Positions 4,460 to 6,019 of a stretch of DNA of 19,576 nt are shown one piece after another. The DNA is taken from the NCBI RefSeq assembly GCF_003334765.1, contig NZ_QOWT01000051.1; one strand, given 5' to 3'. The notes under the pieces are model-generated. The model worked only from the letters and a program-made list of their open reading frames with translations, was not told the origin of the DNA and did not search any database. The position numbers and the translations under genes are program-made. The stretch comes from Escherichia coli (GTDB taxonomy: Bacteria; Pseudomonadota; Gammaproteobacteria; Enterobacterales; Enterobacteriaceae). Within the stretch, counting starts at the first letter, position 1. Every line of letters begins with the position of its first letter.

Positions 4460-6019
4460 TTAAGGTTTACGCTTCGGCAGCGTTTTCATCAGATCTTCCG
4501 GACTGACGGAACCCACCACGCTGCCCGGCAGCGGCATTTTAAGAATGTGATCTTTAATCTTGCCGATAACGTGCATTTCACACGGGCGACAGTCAAATTT
4601 CAGCGTCAGCACCTCATCACCGTTGACCAGTTGCATTGGCGTCGCTTTCCAGCTTTTGATGTTACCTTTCGCCTGTTTCGGGCACAGATTAAAGGCAAAA
4701 CGCAGGCAATGCTTGGTGATCATCACAGGCACATCGCCCTTTTCTTGATGCGCTTCATACGCCGCATCGATCAACTGTACGCCATAACAATGGTAGAACT
4801 CACGCGCCTTCTGGTTATAGACGTTTGCCAGAAAACTCAGATGCGTCTGCGGGTAGACCGGCGCGGGATCGGAGACCGATTTGCGCACGCCGCGTTTGTA
4901 GCGGGCAAGTCGCGCCTTATCCAGCATCTCAATGGCTTCCCGACGGAACACGTTGAGTAGCCCGTTTGGCACAAACAGCGCACCGGGTAGGTTAACCTGA
5001 ATGTCACGCGCGTAGTAGAGCGTCTGCCCCAGCTTCGCCAGGACGTTCTTGAGGTTACTCAGCGCTTTTTCAGCGTTGTTGGCGTCGTCAAACTGACCGT
5101 CCAGCGTGTGCGTTACGCTCACCCCTTCCTCGCTGGTTAATGTCAGGATCAGCTGTTCCTGCCAGCCGCCGAGTTCGATATCCATCGCTACCCGCCGCTC
5201 GCTGGAGGTTTTGGTTAACGCCTGCTGCCAGTTATGATCGAGATTACGGTTCAGTGGATGTCGCGGGCGCACTTTGTGCAGGTCGGCAGGCATCTCGTTC
5301 GGCCAGACGCGATAACTGTTTTCCCCGATTTTTTCGACAGTATTGGCATGAAAACCAACCACCTCATGTTTGATCAGTACGTTCAGGCCATCGCCGTTCG
5401 CCAGTGGTTCACTGGCTTCAACATCAAGGTGATCTTTCGCCACTTTCAGCACTTCGCCAACGGGTAAACCGATGAATTTTTGTGAGTCAAAGGCGCCAAT
5501 ATCGCCTTTGCGCGCATTGACAAAGTAATCGGTGCTGCCGCGATGGAACGTTTTATCCGTGAACGGGATAAAGAAATGCTCGGTGCGACCGGAAGACGCG
5601 CGCGCCAGATCGCTGCGGTCTTCAATGATCGCATCCAGCATTTGCCGATAGTGGACGGTGATATTTTTACGTAACTCATGTCCTTATAACGCCCTTCAAT
5701 TTTGAAGGAGCGTACACCTGCATCAATTAACGCGCCGAGGTTAGCGGTTTGATCGTTGTCTTTCATCGACAGCAGATGTTTTTCGTAAGACACAACCCGG
5801 CCCTGATCGTCCTTCAGGGTGTACGGTAAATGGCACGCCTGGGAGCAGTCGCCGCGGTTGGCGCTACGTCTGATCTGGGCGTGAGAAATATAACACTGGC
5901 CGGAATATGCGACGCAGAGCGCGCGGTCGCCTGATGAATCGTCTGAATTTGCGCAAGGCTCAGCTCGCGCGCCAGCACAATCTGGGTGAAACCGACGTCA
6001 GCCAAAAATTTCGCTTTTT
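4460..6019 (-). pseudogene. U32-family peptidase gene (RlhA/YdcP/YegQ-like), frameshifted and 5'-truncated
   Basis: Three minus-strand pieces carry U32 sequence: ADVGFTQIVLARELSLAQIQTI (track ORF 5814..6005), the U32 signature RALCVAYSGQCYIS plus LIDAGVRSFKIEGRYKDMSYVK (frame of ORF 5446..5793), and the 393-aa C-terminal part (4460..5641). A -1 shift sits in a T5 run at about 5664-5668 (coding strand needs A6 for YVKNITVHYRQMLDAII) and a second frame break lies near 5925-5940. The reading frame runs off into the IR at 6020 without reaching the N-terminus. Confidence 0.75.

Follow-up and report, generated by a model that had tools for sequence, protein, structure and literature searches.

Is the interrupted U32-family gene at positions 4460 to 6019 of an Escherichia coli contig (NZ_QOWT01000051.1, assembly GCF_003334765.1) broken by real mutations or by faulty sequencing, and where did it come from? 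The window, meaning the whole stretch of 19,576 nucleotides that was analysed, had been described from its letters as holding a U32 peptidase gene cut by an inverted repeat (IR) and interrupted by two internal frame breaks, which were put down either to decay after the insertion or to homopolymer-type sequencing error. The RefSeq annotation labels the gene as 'peptidase U32 family protein; frameshifted; incomplete; partial in the middle of a contig; missing N-terminus'. The lesion-bearing state is thus already flagged in RefSeq; the donor and the exact lesions have been worked out here.

The natural point of comparison is RlhA (YdcP), an Fe-S- and prephenate-dependent enzyme. It is the E. coli 23S rRNA 5-hydroxycytidine C2501 synthase (Kimura et al. 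2017, PMC5727448). A tblastn search of the window with the 653-aa E. coli RlhA from a RefSeq chromosome returned three collinear segments on the minus strand, each in another frame, as follows.

4460 to 6019, minus strand: rlhA (ydcP)-type U32 pseudogene remnant, placed by tblastn with E. coli RlhA and by collinearity with Citrobacter sedlakii
5925 to 6019, minus strand: 5'-most surviving piece of the gene, frame -3, RlhA residues 125-156 (tblastn segment 6020-5925, 81% amino acid identity to E. coli RlhA)
5922 to 5665, minus strand: frame -2, RlhA residues 167-252 (tblastn, 97% amino acid identity)
5668 to 4466, minus strand: frame -1, RlhA residues 252-652 (tblastn, 89% amino acid identity)

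The remnant as a whole corresponds to RlhA residues 125-653, with its stop codon at 4460-4462, and is collinear with the intact 653-aa gene of C. sedlakii. The three segments cover residues 125-652 apart from a deleted stretch, 157-166. In the intact C. sedlakii orthologue Pfam recognises both Peptidase_U32 (PF01136, residues 79-305) and DUF3656 (PF12392, residues 391-505), and PF12392 is also matched on the 393-aa product still encoded by the remnant. The order ydcR/oxidase/rlhA is collinear in many Citrobacter and enterobacterial genomes, and ydcR lies near rlhA on the E. coli chromosome. None of the NCBIfam models was passed by the intact C. sedlakii orthologue, the best being TrhP, far under its cut-off, so membership of the RlhA group was judged from three features, namely the identity to E. 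coli RlhA, the architecture of the domains and synteny; by these, the U32-family gene at 4460-6019 is an orthologue of rlhA/ydcP. The alternative identity yegQ/trhP was rejected, because the NCBIfam TrhP model NF011996 gave the remnant 74 bits and the intact C. sedlakii protein 172, where 534 is the cut-off. The original assignment to the U32 family therefore stands, but the comparison drawn there with YegQ-type proteins does not, the relevant homologue being RlhA/YdcP.

The gene did not arrive alone. Homology to C. sedlakii NBRC 105722, the genome used for comparison, extends leftwards from the remnant through four further genes, in the same order as in that species, and stops at about position 104, next to the end of an insertion sequence.

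about 1 to 103: end of an IS3 element, with terminal sequence TGATCTTACCCAGCAATAGTGG... on the minus strand; left boundary of the fragment
104 to 6019: captured C. sedlakii-like chromosomal fragment of 5.9 kb, 97.9% nucleotide identity over 5946 nt
239 to 1648, minus strand: ydcR-like MocR-type regulator
1817 to 3217, plus strand: cytochrome bd-type oxidase subunit I, 466 aa
3217 to 4227, plus strand: cytochrome bd-type oxidase subunit II, 336 aa
4227 to 4355, plus strand: DUF2474 open reading frame (ORF), 42 aa

In a scan of one genome per species, C. sedlakii NBRC 105722 was the closest, its protein sharing 97% amino acid identity with the C-terminal 393 residues of the remnant, while the rest gave at most 90%. 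For the fragment as a whole the next-best genomes are about 75-81% identical, although the synteny is common to other Citrobacter and enterobacterial genomes. The surrounding DNA is IncFII plasmid backbone, with a 3'-5' exonuclease gene, yacB/yacA, repA4, repA, finO and others. A search of PLSDB plasmids for the missing 5' part of rlhA and the DNA upstream of it found only chromosome-type matches of about 75% identity, from which it follows that the other half of the gene has been lost.

Several other irregularities are visible on this plasmid and in related records. The ydcR-like gene has lost its start codon: the ATG of C. sedlakii and all nine outgroups is here ATA, at 1646-1648 (minus strand). 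PGAP nevertheless annotates a 469-aa coding sequence from the ATA, and in IncHI1B-type plasmids that base is deleted. The plasmid branch of this gene has 7 nonsynonymous changes and 6 synonymous ones, so it too is probably dead. Just 3' of its stop codon (239-241), the intergenic DNA has lost 1 nt by comparison with C. sedlakii at about position 234, with substitutions nearby. The draft genome GCA_900449285.1 has subunit II called at 4297-5424 as a 375-aa product running into the DUF2474 ORF, which implies a 1-nt difference at the end of the subunit II gene, either a true variant or a fault of assembly. Between 7700 and 19500 the window consists of a heavily eroded IncFII backbone without most transfer genes, in which PGAP (via NZ_OZ547039.1) marks as pseudogenes a frameshifted repA4, a DUF2726 gene, a traC fragment, a frameshifted ssb, a psiA fragment, a methyltransferase fragment and a frameshifted IS66 tnpC. 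In metagenome contig ERZ827440 the segment matching 9302-12495 is inverted relative to the window, with flanks 99.99% identical; this inversion may be either real or an assembly artefact.

Nucleotide alignment of the remnant to the intact C. sedlakii orthologue placed the lesions precisely. There are exactly two internal indels, in agreement with the three-frame tblastn result and with the two frame breaks originally described, and the gene ends at a transposon terminus.

5664 to 5668, minus strand: 1-nt deletion, A6 to A5 on the coding strand (T5 on the plus strand), from the C. sedlakii alignment
5924 to 5925, minus strand: junction of a 28-nt deletion, frame -3 to frame -2, from the C. sedlakii alignment
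6020 to 6057, plus strand: Tn3-family terminal inverted repeat of 38 bp, GGGGTCCGCTTGGAAAACGGAAATTTTCCCACGCTAAG; homology to C. sedlakii ends at 6019

The smaller lesion, in which GTAAAAAATATC has lost one A to give GTAAAAATATC, moves the frame from -2 to -1 at RlhA residue 252/253 and is the -1 shift that had been located in the T5 run. The second switch had been placed loosely between 5925 and 5940, and its junction, 5924|5925, falls at the low edge of that range. The deleted 28 nt are GATGCCACTCTCGAATTTTTCGTGCATG, flanked by ...ELSLAQIQTIHQAT and ALCVAYSGQCYIS; the junction, ambiguous by one G, reads GGCGACC|GCGCGCTC. Inspection by eye for direct repeats that might explain this deletion found only 1 nt (G) of microhomology. 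The impression that codons were missing between the ELSLAQIQTI segment and the U32 signature proved right, and the suggested alignment of the translation to RlhA/YdcP sized the gap at ten residues, 157-166, which read D-A-T-L-E-F-F-V-H-G in C. sedlakii and D-A-T-I-E161-F-F-I-H165-G in E. coli RlhA. The two deletions total 29 nt, so the frame shifts do not compensate: frame -3 read through the 28-nt deletion junction meets a stop at 5814-5816, and beyond the second break, in the A5 run, the old frame reaches one at 5446-5448. Truncation by the IR was likewise borne out; at 6020-6057 it removes rlhA residues 1-124 with the start codon and promoter, so that the Pfam U32 domain (79-305) is short of its first 46 residues.

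The consequences for function can be read from the U32 signature, which in PROSITE is E-x-F-x2-G-A-L-C-x4-G-x-C-x-I-S. The deleted stretch contains E161, H165 and the start of this signature. In E. coli, an E161A mutant of RlhA restored only a very small quantity of ho5C2501, and C169 and C176, immediately downstream of the E161 stretch, are essential (PMC5727448); the 28-nt deletion, in removing E161, thus loses a residue needed for nearly all activity. A functional enzyme was taken to require an intact ORF with E161, C169 and C176 of the U32 motif and C580 and C611 of the C-terminal region in one frame. Here the motif residues do not share a frame: E161 went with the 28 nt, C169 and C176 are read in a frame shared with neither flank, and residues 1-124 are gone.

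The IR itself, a lone one, is called Tn3-family only, because no clear transposon assignment emerged: the literature on Tn5403 was uninformative as to a parent transposon, and the 38-bp IR match in a Citrobacter plasmid, together with two places in the record, did not settle the matter. In many records homology to IncF plasmids begins exactly at IR base 1. The IR region is matched by 1,795 PLSDB plasmids, mostly of IncF types, and in many members of a spread sample of these the homology runs from IR base 1 into the exonuclease gene at about 90-93% identity. To judge from such alignments, the IR seems to be a long-standing part of the backbone that marks the edge of variable inserts. Copies of the pEC213 type have TT rather than AA at 6035-6036, which creates GAATTC.

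Since the 1-nt lesion sits in a homopolymer, a classic site of long-read indel error, it might be supposed that the T5 run was miscalled, that the assembly is faulty at 5925, and that the real molecule encodes a single frame. This supposition deserves next to no credence. A loss of 28 nt is not a homopolymer-type error, and both lesions are base-for-base identical in 12 of 12 other records from differing projects and sources. Eleven of these come from a plasmid in RefSeq, from NCBI drafts and from metagenome contigs of JGI and ENA; the twelfth is the sole metagenome contig recovered with a search pattern that accepted 0-30 nt at the deletion site, so that either an intact or a deleted form could have matched, and it has the deleted form. 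The 1621 nt from 4400 to 6020 recur at 100% identity in five plasmids: four E. coli ones from RefSeq, of which one is listed in PLSDB as well, and another known from PLSDB. The 393-aa ORF, which owes its existence to the frameshift, turns up in 341 indexed blocks of public assemblies. The nonsynonymous excess described below indicates moreover that the remnant is dead in any case. Both frame breaks are genuine mutations, and sequencing error, the second of the two causes originally proposed, is excluded.

The other proposed cause, decay, is reflected in the pattern of substitutions. Differences between the window and C. sedlakii were polarised with nine further Citrobacter genomes. On the plasmid branch the rlhA remnant has 15 nonsynonymous and 3 synonymous changes, against 13 and 15 in the ydcR-like gene, cioA and cioB together (Fisher p=0.015), counts that are small, with a synonymous polarisation that is noisy because the outgroups are about 20% diverged. 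At least one site, window position 4766, is mis-polarised, as the IncHI1B-type copy shows, and the unpolarised counts are therefore given too: 18 nonsynonymous to 9 synonymous in the remnant and 19 to 39 in the three neighbours (Fisher p=0.005). Fourteen of the 15 nonsynonymous changes fall at residues invariant in the nine Citrobacter outgroups and the fifteenth at a D/E position, while on the C. sedlakii branch rlhA has accumulated no nonsynonymous and 4 synonymous changes. Against a neutral expectation of 0.59-0.77, the nonsynonymous fraction is 0.83 in the remnant and 0.46 in the neighbours. Disabling lesions are thus accompanied by a ratio at neutral level and above that of the neighbouring intact genes. 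G:C>A:T transitions account for 15/18 plasmid-branch changes in the remnant and for 15/28 in the other three genes. Neutral-type divergence in the remnant amounts to about 1%, and the present copies are nearly identical to each other. A divergence of that size looks large for a recent capture.

It might still be argued that the frameshift created something new, setting the start of a truncated but functional protein that is now kept by selection.

4460 to 5641, minus strand: 393-aa ORF left by the frameshift, from the natural Met262 to the natural stop, with DUF3656 and the C-terminal Cys region

This ORF is long and intact, has a natural Met start, is predicted by gene callers and is 100% conserved among the present copies. 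Such conservation reflects recent common ancestry, however, and the plasmid-branch changes within the ORF, 11 nonsynonymous to 3 synonymous, with nearly all of the former at otherwise invariant residues, give no sign of selection and are those of neutral evolution. No AGGAG-like Shine-Dalgarno motif was seen by eye just upstream of the ATG at 5641; the IncHI1B-type plasmids hold only the last 138 codons; and the product is without C169 and C176, the U32-motif cysteines needed for RlhA function. A selected truncated protein is accordingly highly improbable.

The reading preferred here, to which a probability of about 93% is attached, is that the locus is a dead, truncated Citrobacter rlhA copy on an IncFII plasmid, carrying two genuine deletions and undergoing neutral decay, with its lesions clonally inherited. 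On this account rlhA came onto the plasmid within the 5.9-kb piece of C. sedlakii-like chromosome, and the Tn3-family transposon end at 6020 has left it without promoter, start codon or codons 1-124. One A was lost from the A6 run, probably by a slippage-type event, and the 28-nt deletion took out part of the U32 signature, each of the two shifting the frame by one; point substitutions have also gathered at the rate and in the pattern expected without selection. The decay would seem to have come after the loss of function rather than to have caused it. The remnant would do nothing, and its lesions would have become fixed by neutral decay in the ancestor of all present copies and been passed on clonally with the plasmid segment.

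The order of these events is less plain. Megablast against a set of 5,426 genomes of E. coli and another of 72,556 plasmids, run to find copies with only some of the lesions, gave only full-length identical copies or a 475-nt sub-fragment (window 4400-4874) without the lesion region. The three lesions, truncation and two deletions, occur together wherever the region is present, which hides their order, and the 'post-insertion' element of the preliminary description does not follow from the sequences as decay itself does. Decay after the insertion nonetheless appears the simplest reading, since none of the recovered chromosomes has a damaged rlhA. Alternatively, the internal deletions might have come first, either while the gene was still in the Citrobacter donor or at an early stage of its life on the plasmid, with the Tn3-family insertion cutting an already dead gene. 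Here a second plasmid lineage is informative. IncHI1B-typed plasmids of E. coli, Shigella and Salmonella keep only window positions 1578-4874, excluding both lesions. In the region common to the two lineages there are about 54 differences from C. sedlakii, and 40 of them are shared, from which it follows that these plasmids descend from the same capture. Part of the 'plasmid branch' thus predates the split of the two lineages, which, with the constant company of the three lesions, leaves room for early deletions. Against this, rlhA is intact in 80/80 enterobacterial genomes recovered and in the closest relative, so that a chromosomal pseudogene would be unusual, and the ydcR-like gene has also lost its ATG, which fits a loss of selection on the whole fragment after capture. 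An early origin of the deletions is therefore considered unlikely.

If rlhA is merely decaying, it may be asked why the fragment has been retained. The oxidase genes and the DUF2474 ORF (1817-4355) are intact in the two differently truncated plasmid lineages and both flanking genes have decayed; on the plasmid branch the oxidase genes show 6 nonsynonymous and 9 synonymous changes. As far as comparison of the sequences allows, the cytochrome bd-type oxidase genes may be selected cargo. That the fragment was captured long ago and persists on plasmids of E. coli, Shigella and Salmonella for the sake of cioAB-like and DUF2474 cargo under selection, while the flanking genes rot, is advanced only tentatively. 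As a rough estimate, divergence of about 1% at typical enterobacterial rates would mean thousands of years' residence, or else an episode of hypermutation, and goes against capture in the antibiotic era.

The biological weight of the remnant is small, since it is non-functional and the host chromosome normally has its own rlhA. What stays mildly interesting is the past of the Citrobacter fragment, with oxidase genes that appear to be conserved. For practical purposes, the frame breaks ought to be left as they are rather than 'corrected' as errors of sequencing; a better annotation would be rlhA pseudogene of Citrobacter origin, not U32 peptidase; and this plasmid segment, carried for instance by the strains of NZ_CP061102 and NZ_OZ547039, can be tracked clonally by its exact junctions, namely the IR boundary at 6019/6020, the site of the 28-nt deletion and the A5 run. 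The codon changes A150T, T182I, G183R and R196H (RlhA numbering) would serve as markers of the lineage.

Among known systems the locus compares most closely with E. coli RlhA, to which its segments are 81%, 97% and 89% identical in amino acid sequence and with which it shares the ydcR-side neighbourhood and the combination of U32 and DUF3656 domains, an architecture unique to RlhA among the E. coli U32 paralogues (PMC5727448). It differs from RlhA in being without residues 1-124 and 157-166, in being split over three frames, and in carrying at least 15 lineage-specific amino acid replacements, nearly all at conserved positions. YegQ (TrhP), a prephenate-dependent tRNA U34 hydroxylase, belongs to the same U32 superfamily and has the same signature region, but is without the DUF3656 domain. 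From the truncated and frameshifted cargo pseudogenes that PGAP annotates on IncF plasmids, under the same kind of label, the remnant differs in nothing material; the same plasmid has many others, repA4, DUF2726, traC, ssb, psiA and IS66 tnpC, and the rlhA copy is one more cargo pseudogene of the routine kind.
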